A stretch of 64,000 nucleotides of DNA from Chloroflexota bacterium (lineage in GTDB: Bacteria > Chloroflexota > Dehalococcoidia > UBA2979), in the NCBI GenBank assembly GCA_002707835.1, contig PANZ01000010.1, positions 31,526 through 95,525 of the forward strand. The letters run 5' to 3'. How positions within the stretch are numbered: position 1 is the stretch's first letter; each line of letters opens with the position of its first letter. A program made the translations under genes and the position numbers. The notes below the pieces were generated by a model that saw only the letters and a list, made by a program, of their open reading frames with translations, searched no databases and was not told the origin of the DNA. Of this stretch, positions 48,506-55,855 are shown one piece after another.

Positions 48506-49876
48506 TTACCGCAGACCTAGTTCATGATCGCCATCAATATCTAAGATTAATTCTCTTGCCTCAGCAGCAGCATACATGCTTCCTGTCACAATTATAGTTC
48601 CTGATGATTTTGTCATTTTATATGCATAATCAATTGCAGTTTTCATATCATCGGCTGTCTGCGTAATATGGCCCATTTTAGCTATTGAATTAGAAAGTTT
48701 GATGTTATTTATTGCCCGTTCTATACGTAAGTTGGGCAATACTACATGACTATGATCAGGCAATAACTTTAATAGTATATCTAGCCAATTTTTGTCTTGG
48801 AGCATAGCTAAAATATAGATATGTGGTTGAGAAAAAATTTGCTCATCGATAGATTCCTTTAGTCTTTGAGCAGCAAGTTGTGTATGTGCACCGTCTAGGA
48901 TGATGGTAGGATTTTCACTTATTATTTCACCTCTTCCTGGAAGTTCTATTTTTGAAAATGCTCTTAAAACTGTCGAAGGTTGTAGAGTTTTCTTATTGCT
49001 AGAAAGTGCTAGCTCTGTGGCACGTATTGCAGTTATCGCATTTTCGACTTGGTGTCGACCAAGGGTTGGTAACGAAATATTTTTATAAATATTATTTGGG
49101 GTTTGTATATCAAATTGGACTGATTTCTTACTTAAATTGTCGATTATGTAATCACATTCTTTAGTTGTTTCATGTACCTTTGCATTTACTTTTTTTGAGG
49201 CAGAGTAAATTTGTTCGAGTGCATCAGCATGTTGAGGTGATGTAACTACTTCACAATCAGAAACAATTATGCCAGATTTTTCTTTAGCAATTTCGGGTAT
49301 TGTTTTTCCCAAGATTGCGGTGTGTTCTAAGTCTATTGGTGTTATTACTGCAACTGCTTTATGTAAGTTTGCATTCGTAGGATCGAGTCTTCCTCCTAAG
49401 CCTACTTCTAATATTTGCCATAAACTTTTTTCTTGCGATGCTGCAATCCAGGCCATAATTGTTATTAATTCAAAGTAAGAAGCATCAGAGGAAATTTCTG
49501 AATTTAATACGATTTGTGCAATGTCGGTAAATTTTTTTTCTGATAATGGGATTCCATTAATTTGAATCCTCTCTCTTGTTGAGTGAAGGTCTGGTGATGT
49601 TGTAAGCATGGTTTTAGCATTTGGCTCATCGATGATTAAGGATTCTCTAATTAAGGCCTCCACCATTATGGCGGTGGATCCTTTACCTTTTGAGCCTGCG
49701 ATATGAACAGTATTTCGTTCTTGTGGATTACCTATTTCTGAAAGGTATTGACGAATAATAGGGAGTCTATTCGATTTGGCAGAATAGTTCCGGGAACGTT
49801 TTTTTTCGTTTTTAAGTAAATTTTGTATTGATGAAATGTATAGTTTGCTGACATTAAGTTCTTTTTGGTATTGCAT
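48506..49876 (-). CDS. folC: Mur-ligase-family folylpolyglutamate synthase / dihydrofolate synthase
   Basis: The P-loop reads HIAGSKGKGST, and the Mur ligase middle and C-terminal domains are present. Confidence 0.6.
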   Translation of the reverse strand: MQYQKELNVSKLYISSIQNLLKNEKKRSRNYSAKSNRLPIIRQYLSEIGNPQERNTVHIAGSKGKGSTAIMVEALIRESLIIDEPNAKTMLTTSPDLHSTRERIQINGIPLSEKKFTDIAQIVLNSEISSDASYFELITIMAWIAASQEKSLWQILEVGLGGRLDPTNANLHKAVAVITPIDLEHTAILGKTIPEIAKEKSGIIVSDCEVVTSPQHADALEQIYSASKKVNAKVHETTKECDYIIDNLSKKSVQFDIQTPNNIYKNISLPTLGRHQVENAITAIRATELALSSNKKTLQPSTVLRAFSKIELPGRGEIISENPTIILDGAHTQLAAQRLKESIDEQIFSQPHIYILAMLQDKNWLDILLKLLPDHSHVVLPNLRIERAINNIKLSNSIAKMGHITQTADDMKTAIDYAYKMTKSSGTIIVTGSMYAAAEARELILDIDGDHELGLR

Positions 49877-49928: not shown

Positions 49929-50645
49929 TTGCTTATGATCAGAACTTATCGTACATCTGCTGGGGGTATCCCACAAAATATAATTAAGTTTCTCAATGAA
50001 TCTTTGACTCAAAAATCGATTGGTGAAGATATAAGGCTTAGTATTGAATTTGGCACGGTGAGTCGTGGTGGATCCTCTCTTTTTTTTCTATTTTTAGATA
50101 CAAATGAATTCGGAATATCTGAAATTCCCGTGATTACTGCTACATACAGGCCTGCGATTTCTTCTGGGAGTAATTCAGTGGAAGTATTGAATTACAATAG
50201 AAGAATTATATTTCCTTTGGAGCGTATTGTTGAAATTCCAGAAGCCATTGAAATTGAAATTTTTCGTAAAGTTGCTTCACTAGTTTCTCCAGGTGGAAAA
50301 TTGATAGTTGAATATGATTCAGTTGACCATCGATTAACTGCTGAGGCATTAAGTTCAGGTGTTCCTTCAGCAGCAACTCCTTTAGGTGGAATGATGTTAG
50401 CGATTGGTTGTGGGGTGCAGTTTATTAATCACGATCTTTCGGGAGGAGGTCGTGCAGGCAGGAGAAAACTTATTGGATTACGTGGGAAAAATAATCAAAA
50501 TGATCGGGCATTATCACTTAGTATGATTAATGAATTAGAGAACTTTTTAACTTGGTCAAAAGAATTAGATTGGCTTATTCAATCCAAAACCAGACCTATT
50601 GCAATAGCAACTATTACTATGCTTAAAGAAAAGTTCAATTTATGA
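49929..50645 (+). CDS. Hypothetical protein
   Basis: The ORF is 238 codons with coherent coding character but no recognised motif. Confidence 0.35.
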   Translation: MLMIRTYRTSAGGIPQNIIKFLNESLTQKSIGEDIRLSIEFGTVSRGGSSLFFLFLDTNEFGISEIPVITATYRPAISSGSNSVEVLNYNRRIIFPLERIVEIPEAIEIEIFRKVASLVSPGGKLIVEYDSVDHRLTAEALSSGVPSAATPLGGMMLAIGCGVQFINHDLSGGGRAGRRKLIGLRGKNNQNDRALSLSMINELENFLTWSKELDWLIQSKTRPIAIATITMLKEKFNL

Positions 50646-50690: not shown

Positions 50691-51656
50691 ATGCCACTAA
50701 CAATTAATGGAATAAGTTCGCCAGTACAAGGAGTAGATGACGCTTCTTTAAGGCCAGTTTTAGAAGCTATAGTTGATGCTGCTAAATTGATTTCCAATAA
50801 TGTCCAAAATGGCATGCTTATTGAACGCCCAGATCCAGAAGGTGTGCGAAATATTCATGGTGAATTAGTCCATACTTTGGATACTTTAGGAACGAATGCA
50901 TTTGTTGAAGTATTTAAGAATAGCGGAGTTGTAGCAGGTTTGGTGTGTGAAGAATTAGAAGTGGAAACATTTTTCGATGTGAAAAATATATCGGGATCTT
51001 ATTTTTGTGTTTTAGATCCTATTGATGGTACATCGAATGCAGATATTGCGATCACTATTGGTTCAATTTTTGGTATTTTTAAGGGAACTAATGGTAGTGG
51101 TGTATTAGATTCCACCCAATTTTTGCGTCCAGCAAAAGACTTTGTTGCTGCAGGATATGTTTTGTACGGTTCAAGTACTTTGTTAATATTAGCAACACCA
51201 CTTCGAGTTCAAGAATTTACACTTGATATCGACACGATGAAATTTGTTTGTACTCGAAGCTCTATTACTATCCCTGAGGAATGTCCTTATTACAGTGTTA
51301 ATCAGGGATATGAAGATTTATGGGAAGATAATATAAAGACAGCAGTTAACTCAATTAAGAGAGAGCGTTCATTGAGATATGTGGGATCATTGGTTTCAGA
51401 TTTTCATCGCGATCTTATCAGAGGTGGTGTTTATCTGTATCCAGGTGATACGAATAACCCTGAAGGTAAAATCCGTTTGCTTTATGAGGCTGCTGTAATG
51501 AGTTATATCGCTCATTATGCTGGTGGAGGATCGACAAATGGGTACACATCTATATTTGATTTGCAGCCGACATCGATCCATCAACGAACACCGATTTTTG
51601 TGGGTAATTCGAATGTAATTGAACAAATTGAGTCAATATTAAGAGATACTACTTAA
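50691..51656 (+). CDS. fbp: Fructose-1,6-bisphosphatase class I
   Basis: VLDPIDGTSNADI matches the DPLDGSSN region, and GKIRLLYEAAVMSYIAHYAGG matches GKLRLLYE…AGG. Confidence 0.8.
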   Translation: MPLTINGISSPVQGVDDASLRPVLEAIVDAAKLISNNVQNGMLIERPDPEGVRNIHGELVHTLDTLGTNAFVEVFKNSGVVAGLVCEELEVETFFDVKNISGSYFCVLDPIDGTSNADIAITIGSIFGIFKGTNGSGVLDSTQFLRPAKDFVAAGYVLYGSSTLLILATPLRVQEFTLDIDTMKFVCTRSSITIPEECPYYSVNQGYEDLWEDNIKTAVNSIKRERSLRYVGSLVSDFHRDLIRGGVYLYPGDTNNPEGKIRLLYEAAVMSYIAHYAGGGSTNGYTSIFDLQPTSIHQRTPIFVGNSNVIEQIESILRDTT

Positions 51657-51672
51657 ATTAGAAGAGGAGATT

Positions 51673-52590
51673 TTGATGGGCGATGCTAATCGACTAAGAG
51701 AACCATGTGTACTAGATAAGATGCACCTCGCTTCAGGACAATATTCTAGGTTACATAGAATGATGTATGAATATGGAACAGCGAATGGCACCTTGTTACT
51801 TCTTCCCTACGATCATGGTATTGAACATGGTCCGATAGACTTTTTGGATTATCTACAAGGCGCAGATCCTGAATATCTTTTCCGTCTCGCGGTACAAGGT
51901 AAATTCTCTGGTATTGCAACTCATTTAGGTTTAGCAAGAAGATACTTTTCTGAAGTAGCAGGACAGGTTCCTCTTGTCGTGAAACTGAATGGTAAAACAA
52001 ATATTCCTCCTGACGATCATGCTATTTCTGCCATGACTGGGGATGTTGAATCTGCTGTTCGTTTGGGAGCTGATGCTGTTGGGTACACTTTATATGTTGG
52101 TTCGCCAGAGCAACATCAAGATTTCGAACAATTGCGTGCCGTGAGACGTGAATCGGAACTATTAGGGATTCCCTTAATTGTTTGGGCTTATCCTCGGGGC
52201 AAATATATAGAATCTAAAGGCGGTAGAGATGGTTTGTATGCCGTTGATTATGCAGCGAGATTGGCTCTAGAGTTAGGTGCAGATGTAATTAAGTTGAATA
52301 CACCTAAAAGCCATAATCCAGATGCGAGTACTCCTGCACGATATAAAGAATTGGAGGATGAACGATTTGAGATGACTAAGCGTGTAATTGCTTCTGCACA
52401 AAGGGCTTTAGTAGTTTTTACAGGTGGTAGTTTTCACTCAGATGAAGATTTTCTTGCTGACTTGGATATGGTAATGCGAGCTGGAGCTTCAGGTATAATT
52501 GCTGGGCGCAATATGTTTCAACGTACAGAAGAAAATGCAATAGCAATCACGAAACGTGTTCATGAACTTTTAGGAGAATATTCGCAATGA
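51673..52590 (+). CDS. Class I fructose-bisphosphate aldolase family (DhnA/FbaB archaeal type; could instead be an ADH-synthase-like member)
   Basis: LLLPYDHGIEHGP and the VVKLNGKT…DVIKLN Lys regions are typical of the family. Confidence 0.6.
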   Translation: MMGDANRLREPCVLDKMHLASGQYSRLHRMMYEYGTANGTLLLLPYDHGIEHGPIDFLDYLQGADPEYLFRLAVQGKFSGIATHLGLARRYFSEVAGQVPLVVKLNGKTNIPPDDHAISAMTGDVESAVRLGADAVGYTLYVGSPEQHQDFEQLRAVRRESELLGIPLIVWAYPRGKYIESKGGRDGLYAVDYAARLALELGADVIKLNTPKSHNPDASTPARYKELEDERFEMTKRVIASAQRALVVFTGGSFHSDEDFLADLDMVMRAGASGIIAGRNMFQRTEENAIAITKRVHELLGEYSQ

Positions 52591-52630
52591 TTTCTAGCTA
52601 TTTTATGGTCTTTTTCTTTGGCTCACTCCA

Positions 52631-53731
52631 ATTCGATTAACTCTCACTTCTATCGCATCCCCTGTTGGTGGGCTCGTAAGTCCTGGAGTATCACACTCTG
52701 AGATTGCTAATGTTGCAGAGTCAGCAGTATCTGAGATTGTCTTAGCTGCTCCAGTAATTGATCTCAAAGCTTATTTGGTAGGTGGTTCTATATATATCTT
52801 GATTACCCATACGGCAGGTGAGAAGGATAAACAGATATTTTCAATTGCTAGAGATATTGTTGAAGATTGTCAAAATGTTGCAAAGAAATTAAAACTATAT
52901 GTTCACCATGAAAATATAGGAATAAATTTGCCAGAGGATAATTTGAATGTTGCTGGTTTTTCTATAGCAGAAATAACATTTGAAGAACGAATAAAAGAAT
53001 CACTTATTTGTCTAATCGGATCTGGTATGGGACTTGGGGGATTTAATCTTCCATTATTTAAGACTTTTGCTGATCCATTTAATACCGCAGGTTTAATTTT
53101 CTCCGATATGTTGCATGAAGGGACTGCATTTGAGGTGCAAGATACAATTGAGCACCGTAAAGCTGTTTTTGCCAATCCGAGTGAATCATATGATTTACTT
53201 GCTTACATTGGCATGACAGATAGATTTGTTGTACATCGTGTGATTACTCGTGTCGATGGTAAAATTGTTGCAGTCGCTTCGACAGATAGATTGAGTGATG
53301 TTAATGGATTAAATTCAGGGAATGATACTCCGGTAGCAATTGTTCGTTGTGAGGGATCATTACCCACAATCGGTGAAGTTACCGAACCATATGCTGTGCC
53401 TGCTTTGGTAGTAGGTTCAAATAGAGGTTCACATTTGGGGCCATGGATGCCTGTTAGTGTTACAGATTTATCTATTGGCAGATTTGATGGCCCACCTAAA
53501 ATTGCTGCCCTTGGTTTTAATCTTGCAGACGGGTATTTGGGGTTGGAAAAGGATATTTTTGCTGATAATTCATTCGATCGCGCTAGAGAACAAGCTAACT
53601 TGCTGACAGATATTTTACGTAAACAAGGCCCGTTTGAACCATACAGAGTGAATCTCGATTCTTCGGAAATTCAACAATTACCTGGATTTGCAGCTCAAAC
53701 TGAATCTCGTTGGGTTTCGATTGGAGAATAA
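52631..53731 (+). CDS. Fructose-1,6-bisphosphate aldolase/phosphatase (FBPase class V, PF01950)-like protein; no canonical start codon, and substitutions at recalled catalytic positions
   Basis: The track ORF (TTG at 52775) begins in the middle of a conserved block (…YILITHTAGE; NLPLFKTFADPFNT; NRGSHLGPWMPV; RFDGPPK). The same frame is open back to 52598 and encodes IRLTLTSIASPVGGLVSPGVSHSEI…, which aligns to the family N-terminus (MKxTxSVIKADxGS…HH…). There is no in-frame ATG/GTG/TTG before 52775. Confidence 0.5.
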   Translation: MRLTLTSIASPVGGLVSPGVSHSEIANVAESAVSEIVLAAPVIDLKAYLVGGSIYILITHTAGEKDKQIFSIARDIVEDCQNVAKKLKLYVHHENIGINLPEDNLNVAGFSIAEITFEERIKESLICLIGSGMGLGGFNLPLFKTFADPFNTAGLIFSDMLHEGTAFEVQDTIEHRKAVFANPSESYDLLAYIGMTDRFVVHRVITRVDGKIVAVASTDRLSDVNGLNSGNDTPVAIVRCEGSLPTIGEVTEPYAVPALVVGSNRGSHLGPWMPVSVTDLSIGRFDGPPKIAALGFNLADGYLGLEKDIFADNSFDRAREQANLLTDILRKQGPFEPYRVNLDSSEIQQLPGFAAQTESRWVSIGE

Positions 53732-54334
53732 ATGTCTCAATCTAAATTAGTAGTTGCAACATCAAATCAGGGAAAGCTGAAGGAGATTCGTACATTACTT
53801 GAAGATACTAATTGGCTGGTATTGGGATTGTCTGATTTTAATTTACAAGACACTGCTATTATTGAGACTGGTAATTCATATCTAGAGAATGCACTAGCTA
53901 AAGCCAATAATATTGCCAAGCTGACAGGGATAATTACATTGGCTGATGACTCTGGTTTGGAAGTAAATGCTTTGGGAGGCAAGCCAGGAGTTGTAACTGC
54001 AAGATTTGGTGGTCCACTTCTAAATGATAATCAACGATGCGATTATTTGTTAAAATTATTGACAGATGTTCCTAAAGAAAAGCGACAAGCATGTTTTCGC
54101 GCTGTCCTTGCGATTAGCATCCCCGGAGGGCTAAATTTTGCTCGTGAAGGTATACTAAATGGATACATCGCACAAAGCTTTCGTGGAGAGAACGGATTTG
54201 GGTACGATCCTATTTTTGAACTTCAAGATGGAAGGACATTAGCTGAGTTGGGATCTGAAAAACAGCAGATTAGTCACCGTTTTCAAGCTATGAGAGCGAT
54301 AAAAAAAGTATTAAGGGAATTTGATCATGGCTAA
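53732..54334 (+). CDS. rdgB: Non-canonical purine NTP pyrophosphatase (RdgB/HAM1)
   Basis: LVVATSNQGKLKEI and the FGYDPIF motif are present. Confidence 0.85.
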   Translation: MSQSKLVVATSNQGKLKEIRTLLEDTNWLVLGLSDFNLQDTAIIETGNSYLENALAKANNIAKLTGIITLADDSGLEVNALGGKPGVVTARFGGPLLNDNQRCDYLLKLLTDVPKEKRQACFRAVLAISIPGGLNFAREGILNGYIAQSFRGENGFGYDPIFELQDGRTLAELGSEKQQISHRFQAMRAIKKVLREFDHG

Positions 54335-55370
54335 GCCTCACGATCACGATTATGACGATAACTTTATTGATTCCTTAGGTAGGCCATTAAGAGATTTAAG
54401 AATTTCGGTGACTGATCGATGTAATTTTCGATGTCAGTACTGTATGCCTAAAGAAATTTTCGGACCAGAATTCGAATTTTTACCTCGCGAAGACATCATG
54501 AGTTTTGAAGAAATTACTCGGATAGCAACATTGTCCGCTAGCTTAGGTGTTACAAAATTTAGACTTACAGGAGGTGAACCACTGTTGCGTGCAGATTTAC
54601 ATAAACTTGTGAGCAAGCTCCATGAGATTCCTAATGTTGAGATTGCTCTGACTACCAATGGCACTTTACTAAAAAATTACGCTCAATTATTGTCTGAGTC
54701 TGGATTAAACAGAGTAACAGTCAGTCTTGACTCATTGGATGATCAAACGTTTCGTCAAATGAATGATGTTAGCTTTCCTGTTAAGGCCGTTTTAGAAGGG
54801 ATTGAAACGGCAGGTCACTTTGGTTTGGGGCCAATTAAGATTAATGCCGTCGTGCGTAAAGGCGTTAATGACCATACTCTTCTAGATTTAGCTGCATATT
54901 TTCGTGGAACTTCTCATATTGTTAGATTTATCGAGTATATGGATGTTGGTAACTCTAATGGATGGGTTATGGATGAGGTAATTCCTTCCAGTCGAATACT
55001 TTCACTAATAGGAAAGATTTATCCTCTGGAGGAACTTCCTTCTAATTATAGTGGTGAAGTAGCAAGTAGATATCGATATAAAGATGGTGCGGGGGAAATA
55101 GGATTAATTAGTTCAATTACAGCTCCCTTTTGTGGAAATTGTACGCGTGCACGTTTATCAGCAGATGGGAAGTTTTTTACCTGTCTTTTTGCTAGCAGTG
55201 GCACAGATATATTGAAGGAAATTCGCTCTGGTGCTACCGATAAACATTTGATTGAAATGTTAAAATCTATTTGGTTACGTAGAGATGATCAATATTCTGA
55301 ACTTAGGACCAAATACATGCGATTATCCCCTGAAGAGAAAAAGATTGAGATGTCTTATATTGGTGGATAG
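54321..55370 (+). CDS. moaA: GTP 3',8-cyclase (molybdenum cofactor biosynthesis A)
   Basis: The radical SAM cluster is CNFRCQYC, and the C-terminal auxiliary cluster is CGNCTRARL. It overlaps rdgB by 14 bp. Confidence 0.92.
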   Translation: MIMAKPHDHDYDDNFIDSLGRPLRDLRISVTDRCNFRCQYCMPKEIFGPEFEFLPREDIMSFEEITRIATLSASLGVTKFRLTGGEPLLRADLHKLVSKLHEIPNVEIALTTNGTLLKNYAQLLSESGLNRVTVSLDSLDDQTFRQMNDVSFPVKAVLEGIETAGHFGLGPIKINAVVRKGVNDHTLLDLAAYFRGTSHIVRFIEYMDVGNSNGWVMDEVIPSSRILSLIGKIYPLEELPSNYSGEVASRYRYKDGAGEIGLISSITAPFCGNCTRARLSADGKFFTCLFASSGTDILKEIRSGATDKHLIEMLKSIWLRRDDQYSELRTKYMRLSPEEKKIEMSYIGG

Positions 55371-55390: not shown

Positions 55391-55855
55391 ATGTTTTCAC
55401 ATATTGATGATCAAGGTAATGCTCAAATGGTAGATATATCAGATAAAGACATTACGGTGCGTATCGCAACTGCCGAAGCGAAAATAGAAATGGCGAGTAC
55501 AACTTTAGAAGAAATTATCAACGGCGCTATACCTAAAGGAAATGTTCTTAATACTGCTAAAATTGCTGGAATTATATCAGCAAAAAAAACGCATGAATTG
55601 ATTCCATTATGTCATCAAATATTACTTTCAGGGATTGACATAGGCTTTTATCCTGATCAAAAAAATGCTGTTTTAGTAATTAATTCTACAGTTAAGACGA
55701 CTTATTCTACGGGAGTAGAGATGGAAGCATTAACAGCAGTGAGTGTTGCAGCTTTAACGATTTATGATATGTGTAAGGCAGTGGATAAAAACATGAAAAT
55801 TACAAACATTCATTTGGTTTCTAAAACTGGTGGGCAATCAAGTAATACGGAATAG
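55391..55855 (+). CDS. moaC: Cyclic pyranopterin monophosphate synthase
   Basis: FSHIDDQGNAQMVDIS and IPLCHQI are present. Confidence 0.9.
   Translation: MFSHIDDQGNAQMVDISDKDITVRIATAEAKIEMASTTLEEIINGAIPKGNVLNTAKIAGIISAKKTHELIPLCHQILLSGIDIGFYPDQKNAVLVINSTVKTTYSTGVEMEALTAVSVAALTIYDMCKAVDKNMKITNIHLVSKTGGQSSNTE

Follow-up and report, generated by a model that had tools for sequence, protein, structure and literature searches.

The locus and its three genes

The DNA analysed here is a 64-kb stretch of a Chloroflexota genome, termed the window. At positions 50691-53731 it carries three genes in tandem on the + strand, namely a class I fructose-1,6-bisphosphatase (FBPase), a class I aldolase for fructose-1,6-bisphosphate (FBP) and a homologue of FBP aldolase/phosphatase (FBPA/P) of family PF01950. 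The third gene (52631-53731, +), a pseudo-FBPA/P of 366 codons with a proposed ATT start, is predicted to be catalytically void; it and its product are called the dead gene and the dead protein below. L-numbers denote retrieved loci and P-numbers retrieved proteins. The initial annotation had placed a class I FBPase, a DhnA-type aldolase and an FBPA/P-like gene in tandem and described the arrangement as redundant. The tandem is borne out by matches to PF00316 with PF18913, to PF01791 and to PF01950, respectively. The redundancy is not, since the third gene is apparently void; the trio is better described as its displacement by the two enzyme genes next to it.

The FBPase (50691-51656, +; E 1e-37) has class 1 FBPase as its top NCBIfam model at 288 bits, which lies under the equivalog cut-off of 368, and it can be assigned by sequence as a divergent member of class I. 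Its metal-site motifs DPIDGTSN and RLLYE (LLYE) align with solved FBPases, and the enzyme is apparently intact. The aldolase (51673/51676-52590, +) is of the DeoC/DhnA type, also known as archaeal-type class IA, and matches PF01791 with an E-value of 7e-40. The closest solved relative is the class I FBP aldolase of Thermoproteus tenax (1OJX, E 2e-49); in the comparison of the two, the lysines of ADVIKL and ADAMKI are aligned, and the aldolase lysine is kept. Among the NCBIfam models, that for class I FBP aldolase scores highest, with 203 bits against a cut-off of 277, and the models for ADH synthase score lower. The gene is thus predicted to encode an archaeal-type class IA FBP aldolase that retains the Schiff-base lysine and looks intact. 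A strong GAGGAG precedes its ATG, and the protein is 94-95% identical across window-type lineages. All three proteins of the trio score under their NCBIfam equivalog cut-offs, as expected because the lineage is divergent, and the FBPA/P-like protein falls furthest below.

Family membership and fold of the third protein

The FBPA/P-like frame matches PF01950 with an E-value of 7.5e-96 and 321.9 bits over profile positions 1-360 of 361, which answers the initial annotation's question of family membership. A phmmer search aligns the dead protein with the FBPA/P of Thermoproteus neutrophilus (3T2B) at E 1.9e-75. Against NF041126 it reaches 313.1 bits, and the equivalog cut-off of 520 is not attained. 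The AlphaFold (AF2) model has a predicted template modelling score (pTM) of 0.86, and Foldseek superimposes it on 3T2C with a template modelling (TM) score of 0.88 and a root mean square deviation of 2.0 Å. The parts of the model with low confidence largely coincide with the formerly mobile active-site loops. The profile match and the model together describe the dead protein as a folded, full-length FBPA/P homologue.

Loss of the active site

Residues are numbered according to T. neutrophilus FBPA/P (3T2B), and positions were mapped by the phmmer alignment together with MAFFT alignments. Lys232 reportedly forms the Schiff base in FBPA/P, and Tyr229 is said to act as the proton shuttle. The Mg2+ ligands, which we take to be Asp11, His18, Asp52, Asp53, Gln95, Asp132, Asp233 and Asp234 (plus Lys133), make up most of the remaining signature. 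The 14 catalytic and ligand positions are invariant in the canonical reference set of ~70 bacterial and archaeal loci, and 13 of them are replaced in the window protein, with Asp233 as the sole position kept. The substitutions include K9A, D11P, H18P, D52G, D53S and Q95E in the first part of the protein, followed by D132S, K133G, Y229N, K232N, D234T and Y358I. The stretch GLNSGNDTP stands where canonical enzymes have GRYVGKDDP, and both Tyr229 and Lys232 have become asparagine. A C-terminal catalytic tyrosine is important in the FBPA/P family (PMC8740755). This residue, Tyr347 in ST0318 of Sulfolobus tokodaii and Tyr358 in the T. neutrophilus enzyme, is isoleucine in the window and glutamine, leucine or histidine in the other members of the dead clade described below.

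The initial annotation had read Asp11, His18, Asp52/Asp53, Tyr229 and Lys232 as P, P, G/S, N and N, and the two alignments return the same residues. Judged by its sequence, the dead protein departs from FBPA/P (EC 4.1.2.13 and 3.1.3.11) in the Schiff-base and proton-shuttle residues, the Mg2+-ligand set and the C-terminal tyrosine alike, and the gene appears catalytically void.

The dead clade and its conservation

Loss of the signature is not confined to the window. Among the 120 best database homologues, 27 are without essentially all 14 signature positions, and they fall into three subgroups. In a neighbour-joining tree the dead clade is monophyletic (30 of 30 bootstraps) and nested among the FBPA/Ps of Dehalococcoidia, and its closest neighbours are partly degenerate K232N sequences, in which the Schiff-base lysine is gone. 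The dead state is common to lineages just ~50% identical. In one subgroup, with proteins of 341 amino acids, two active-site loops are additionally deleted. A search of a representative protein library gave 385 matches to the dead protein, the best of which are fragments of at most 46% identity. In this library we also note FBPA/P-like domains inside very long proteins of 874-2730 amino acids (P0151, P0177, P0179, P0180, P0194, P0196).

The pattern of conserved columns separates fold from function. Dead and canonical proteins share 105 conserved alignment columns, and 77 columns are conserved in canonical proteins only, in clusters at 6-23, 50-59, 85-114, 130-135, 216-234 and 356-365. The dead clade alone conserves 22 columns. 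These are mostly conservative substitutions with a few polar or charged residues (R177, N182, D280, R328, S370), and no new catalytic site is evident among the 22. The former pocket positions vary between the dead subgroups. Because of this column pattern and the pocket variation, the alignments indicate that an active site was lost rather than a new one built.

Selection on the gene is nonetheless strong. Over codons 49-366 in four lineages, the ratio of non-synonymous to synonymous substitutions (dN/dS) is 0.07-0.11 at dS 0.55-1.1. Identity of the dead protein to its counterpart in locus L006 is 84%, with neighbouring genes at 74-94%, and to that in the more distant L007 it is 52%, with neighbouring genes at 44-66%. 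The dead gene is under strong purifying selection and is not a pseudogene; the low dN/dS and the intact frames uphold the initial annotation, which had thought a recent pseudogene unlikely.

Start codon and N-terminus

The frame of the third gene is open from 52598 to the TAA at 53729-53731. Upstream it is closed by an in-frame TAG (52595-52597, +) that is conserved in all relatives, and the first in-frame ATG, GTG or TTG after this TAG is a TTG at 52775 (codon 49). The conserved N-terminal region thus lies upstream of the start chosen by the ORF finder and is without a canonical start, exactly as the initial annotation had it. The codon homologous to Met1 is an ATT (52631-52633, +), which is proposed as a non-canonical initiation codon. 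It aligns to M1 or V1 of the homologues, with I-RLTLT in the window against MRITLT or VRITLT, and position 1 of PF01950 corresponds to the next residue.

The start region was compared in 12 independent assemblies (NCBI metagenome-assembled genomes (MAGs), ENA, JGI, Logan and TARA) from four lineages, with protein identities of 84-99%; a scan of metagenome DNA gave five further contigs, all within the four known lineages. The codon at the Met1 position is ATT in nine of the 12 (the window, L003, L004, L006 and L094-L098) and ATC in three (L001, L002, L005). Of the near-cognate starts, ATT/ATC alone is conserved in all lineages, and no canonical start is conserved. The initial annotation had counted about 370 intact codons; from the ATT there are 366, and this frame is intact in 12 of 12 assemblies. 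As a canonical start is lacking in each of 12 independent assemblies, a sequencing or assembly error, which the initial annotation had wished to see checked, is not the cause. Its proposed comparison with orthologues shows ATT or ATC at the same codon in relatives, and a dead clade without the catalytic lysine.

The pattern of substitution changes at the proposed start. In all three frames of the 41-nt spacer, non-synonymous divergence amounts to 0.22-0.23 per site; it drops to 0.08 in codons 2-27, which have many synonymous changes, zero indels and zero stops at dS up to 1.1. In the structural model, residues 2-11 (β1) and 42-50 (β2) form core strands with a predicted local distance difference test (pLDDT) score of ~90. 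As the ATT/ATC codon is conserved, non-synonymous divergence falls at the start and core strands are encoded there, the N-terminus upstream of codon 49 is probably translated. The tryptic peptide LTLTSIASPVGGLVSPGVSHSEIANVAESAVSEIVLAAPVIDLK would belong to the full-length product and is encoded upstream of TTG 52775.

The TTG itself (52775-52777, +), chosen by ORF finders and gene callers to give a 318-aa call, is not conserved. It reads TTA in the near-identical L094 and also in L003, L006, L095, L096 and L098, and in L001, L002 and L005 it is replaced by CTT followed by GTG. In L003, L096 and L098, which belong to one lineage, no canonical start comes up in frame until codon 87. A product initiated at the TTG would, according to the model, be without core strands β1 and β2. 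Across the loci, gene callers give the FBPA/P-like gene shortened products of 318, 317 or 280 amino acids, and they place a spurious antisense ORF of 54 amino acids in the start region (window 52603-52767, -; L001 987-1151; L002 1149-1313).

The upstream open reading frame

A 17-codon upstream open reading frame (uORF; 52587-52640, +) overlaps the start region. The uORF's ATG and the stop codon of the aldolase gene overlap in cAATGA, and the TAA that closes the uORF comes 5 nt after the ATT. A GGAG in the 3' end of the aldolase gene (52573-52576, +), 10 nt before the uORF ATG, is invariant in all lineages. All 12 assemblies, from four lineages (e.g. L003, L005, L006, L094-L098), have the uORF unbroken and with the same number of codons; its peptide is weakly conserved, with a ratio of non-synonymous to synonymous divergence (pN/pS) of 0.64. 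The GGAG and the ATG sit in constrained aldolase coding sequence, and 16 stop-free codons are not improbable in T-rich DNA. We hypothesize that the uORF may serve as a termination-reinitiation relay, which would deliver ribosomes to a non-AUG start that is without a Shine-Dalgarno (SD) motif.

Checks for RNA-level signals were negative. RNAalifold around the start gave 38 pairs with no compensatory changes, and hence no structure supported by covariation; Rfam had zero matches anywhere in the window; and the 3' end of the aldolase gene, scored in the aldolase frame, is without unusual synonymous conservation. Two routes into the frame were considered and rejected. Fusion to, or readthrough from, the aldolase is ruled out by the different frames and by the in-frame TAG at 52595-97. 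A frameshift from the out-of-frame ATG at 52605 is rejected, as this codon is GTA in relatives and there is no shared slippery site.

Synteny and probable displacement

The order of genes around canonical FBPA/P in Dehalococcoidia and other Chloroflexota is FabF(-), FolC(-), DUF1122, FBPA/P, Ham1, MoaA and MoaC, and in ~20 such loci FolC and DUF1122 flank the canonical gene. The same anchors surround the window trio. Upstream lie a FolC-like Mur ligase (48506-49876, -) and a DUF1122 gene (49929-50645, +). Downstream are Ham1/RdgB (53732-54334, +), whose ATG directly follows the TAA of the dead gene, MoaA (54321-55370, +), which overlaps the 3' end of Ham1 at 54321-54334, and MoaC (55391-55855, +). 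The order FolC-DUF1122-[FBPase I]-dead gene-Ham1-MoaA-MoaC is found in all of the at least 10 fully dead loci; those examined comprise the window lineage, L007, L008, L010, L085, L086/87 and L088/89. The dead gene occupies the slot of canonical FBPA/P and is therefore its positional orthologue in Dehalococcoidia rather than an extra paralogue. The retained pseudoenzyme paralogue of the initial annotation thus keeps the pseudoenzyme, in agreement with the dN/dS of 0.07-0.11, and loses the paralogue.

Every fully dead locus checked has an orthologue of the class I FBPase, 57-61% identical, immediately before the dead gene, often only 3-4 nt away, and in the syntenic canonical loci of Dehalococcoidia and Chloroflexota no FBPase is present between DUF1122 and FBPA/P. 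The FBPase is presumed to replace the phosphatase half of FBPA/P. Only the window's low-GC lineage has the aldolase between FBPase and dead gene; the loci L007, L008, L010, L085, L086 and L088 are without it. With a dead gene in the FBPA/P slot and an inserted FBPase beside it, the locus therefore records in-situ non-orthologous displacement, with intermediates, and not redundancy.

The intermediates include the K232N proteins P0041 and P0055, which adjoin a DeoC aldolase and a class I FBPase. As these enzymes are merely 30-37% identical to those of the window, they were evidently recruited separately. In L009 the FBPA/P is intact and both enzymes lie downstream. Trios of DeoC aldolase, class I FBPase and FBPA/P occur at L090 3973-7095, L092 6001-9203 and L009 1227-4464; their gene orders differ, their enzymes are again 30-37% identical to the window's, and they therefore point to repeated recruitment to one locus. 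Further independent decay of FBPA/P is suggested by the sequences of L029 and L044. The degenerate FBPA/P of L029 (8001-9080) carries D11A, H18Q, D52E, D132S, K133E and K232S. At L044 (8001-9074/6933-7802) a K232E copy of FBPA/P is preceded by a second FBPA/P-like stretch, ~24% identical.

Downstream coupling is tight, both at the junction of the dead gene with Ham1 (53729-53734) and at that of Ham1 with MoaA (54321-54334), so the genes from FBPase through MoaC are consistent with one operon. A scan for promoters and terminators gave no signal above background within the cluster and fewer sites than in shuffled sequence. The DUF1122 gene, for which no matching NCBIfam model was found, is syntenic with FBPA/P, whether that gene is canonical or dead, in nearly all Dehalococcoidia and Chloroflexota loci examined. 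The closest genome records are the marine MAGs Dehalococcoidia bacterium ALOHA_A2.0_7 and Chloroflexota bacterium SP4356. Genome-streamlined marine lineages of the SAR202 type have been described (PMC11994032), and the GC content of the window, 38.4%, is compatible with them.

Proposed course of events and alternatives

We regard it as probable that an in-situ enzyme displacement took place at this locus and that the old FBPA/P was kept as a weakly expressed, full-length pseudoenzyme. A class I FBPase would have inserted directly upstream, after which FBPA/P would have lost its whole catalytic apparatus; the class I aldolase would have inserted later at the locus, in the low-GC marine lineage only. 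FBPase and aldolase presumably now carry the flux from triose phosphate to fructose 6-phosphate, and the old gene would persist as a folded, selectively maintained pseudoenzyme. Its 366-residue product would be made from AUU or AUC without an SD motif, probably at a low level, and termination on the 17-codon uORF may hand ribosomes to the AUU. Its role would be non-catalytic: the dead protein would most likely act as a scaffold, a regulator or a partner in an oligomer, linked to the FBPase with which its gene is co-transcribed, or else carry on a second function, not an enzymatic one, of the ancestral FBPA/P.

Several points weigh against this course of events. Codons 28-48 evolve fast, with a pN/pS of 0.60. 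No SD-like motif is found at -18 to -4 of the ATT, and about half of the window genes carry one; AUU and AUC are very weak starts in model bacteria. The start and the expression are read from sequence alone in an uncultured lineage, and the partner or scaffold role is drawn purely from gene adjacency. No FBPase lies within 8 kb of the degenerate FBPA/P of L029, which shows that partial decay also occurs without an adjacent FBPase. Finally, displacement is judged at this locus, not genome-wide.

A more specific version of the displacement, which we would place among the unlikely readings, makes the dead protein an obligate non-catalytic subunit. As a prozyme- or scaffold-like octamer, it would organise or regulate FBPase and aldolase, with its stoichiometry set by termination on the uORF and reinitiation at AUU/AUC. 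If this were true, the separate enzymes would recreate the ancestral channelled and unidirectional step from triose phosphate to fructose 6-phosphate.

About equally unlikely is a neofunctionalised enzyme, in which the FBPA/P fold has been remodelled to hold a new active site for another reaction, e.g. on another sugar phosphate, within the same operon. Strong purifying selection would fit such an enzyme, as would the 105 shared columns, many of which are charged (D44, H60, E115, E120, R121, E124, D149 and others, and further E169, H171, D172, R266, H269 and E357), and the histidine that subgroups B and C keep at position 232. The pocket positions, however, differ among the dead subgroups, one of which has even lost the two active-site loops, and the 22 columns specific to the dead clade are mostly conservative and form no evident new constellation. 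A precedent exists in CinF of Coxiella, an FBPA/P homologue turned protein phosphatase, but CinF keeps and needs the catalytic tyrosine (PMC8740755), which the dead protein is without.

The remaining explanations concern how, or whether, the full frame is read. It is improbable that the product is N-terminally truncated, beginning at TTG 52775 or the nearest canonical codon, and that the 48 upstream codons are a decaying remnant. Gene callers did pick such starts (the 318-aa and 317-aa calls), codons 28-48 evolve fast, and neither an SD motif nor a canonical start lies upstream; yet the TTG is TTA even in near-identical L094, there is no canonical start before codon 87 in L003, L096 and L098, and the TTG is likewise without a preceding SD motif. 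The restraint on codons 2-27 (pN 0.08 against 0.22 in the spacer, with neither indel nor stop where dS reaches 1.1) and the core strands at residues 2-11 and 42-50 (pLDDT ~90) are also at odds with a remnant. Recoding by a programmed -1 frameshift into the FBPA/P frame, either from the uORF (ATG 52587) or from ATG 52605, with a product that would begin MISSYF..., is still harder to sustain. It would draw on the conserved uORF that overlaps the start region, on T-rich runs, and on the four codons LF(L/V)W before the ATT, whose changes are mostly synonymous in the FBPA/P frame. No slippery heptamer, however, is common to the four lineages, ATG 52605 is GTA in relatives, the spacer has a pN of 0.22-0.23 in all three frames, and no stimulatory RNA structure is supported by covariation. 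As to the initial annotation's "non-canonical initiation or recoding", the ATT/ATC at the Met1 position favours the former, and frameshift recoding is not supported because a conserved slippery site is missing. Non-canonical initiation and a retained pseudoenzyme, which the initial annotation had offered as alternatives, are compatible and both supported here. An artefact of sequencing or assembly, or a recent and drifting pseudogene, would account for the absence of a canonical start and SD motif and for the lost catalytic residues. This reading is already contradicted and has next to no likelihood, as the architecture is repeated in 12 assemblies from different projects with the frame intact in all, dN/dS is 0.07-0.11, and the dead state is common to lineages ~50% identical.

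Implications

Seven dead-clade proteins (P0002, P0005, P0011, P0015, P0019, P0026, P0056) are annotated as an active enzyme by NCBI, JGI and TARA, with labels such as 'fructose 1,6-bisphosphatase', 'FBP aldolase/phosphatase' and K01622 on dead-clade members. Metabolic reconstructions of marine Dehalococcoidia that count the dead gene as a gluconeogenic enzyme would assign the wrong protein. According to one proposal, the ancestral enzyme of gluconeogenesis was FBPA/P. The locus would keep, at a single site, a record of its stepwise replacement, from intact FBPA/P through loss of the Schiff-base lysine to the fully dead gene, and the long retention of an emptied protein, here in a marine genome with 38% GC, suggests a second, non-catalytic function that FBPA/P had or acquired. 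The locus also adds a natural AUU/AUC start without an SD motif in Chloroflexota that is well supported by sequence comparison.

Comparison with known systems

A pseudoenzyme and a non-AUG start are both of known kinds, and the dead FBPA/P clade appears not to have been described: our literature search found no account of it, although names containing a slash are unsearchable, so the absence is not proven. The dead protein is closest to canonical FBPA/P itself (T. neutrophilus 3T2B-3T2G; S. tokodaii ST0318 3R1M/1UMG; PF01950, NF041126). It shares full-length homology at 39% identity, the fold (TM 0.88), 105 structural columns and the genomic slot in Dehalococcoidia. It differs by the absence of Lys232, Tyr229, Lys133 and the C-terminal tyrosine, by that of the Mg ligands Asp11, His18, Asp52, Asp53, Gln95, Asp132 and Asp234, by the non-AUG start of its gene, and by a score of 313 against a cut-off of 520.

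CinF (Cbu0513) of Coxiella burnetii is an FBPA/P homologue that has lost FBPase activity and acts as a protein phosphatase on IkB-alpha (PMC8740755), and it is the only functionally diverged member of the family that we found described in the literature. Like the dead protein, it belongs to the FBPA/P family and, as is predicted for the dead protein, it is without the gluconeogenic reaction and has been retained for another role. In contrast to the dead protein, CinF keeps the catalytic machinery, requires Tyr362 and is still a phosphatase (PMC8740755). In the window protein the residues for metal and Schiff base are gone; the protein is no secreted effector, and it is encoded in a gluconeogenic operon.

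The prozymes of trypanosomatid AdoMetDC and DHS are pseudoenzyme partners of an active paralogue of the same fold. They resemble the present case in that a dead homologue under purifying selection is genetically linked to active pathway enzymes. Here, however, the linkage is one of genes, and neither neighbour, the class I FBPase or the class I aldolase, is related to the dead protein in fold.

For the start codon, the counterparts are infC (IF3) and pcnB of Escherichia coli, bacterial genes that are initiated at AUU. This is in contrast to the dead gene in two respects: infC has a recognisable ribosome-binding site, and none is seen before the dead gene; and the dead gene has a conserved uORF that ends 5 nt past its start codon. 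Common to infC, pcnB and the dead gene is a conserved near-cognate AUU or AUC at the true, or for the dead gene the proposed, N-terminus, which implies initiation that is low or sensitive to IF3.

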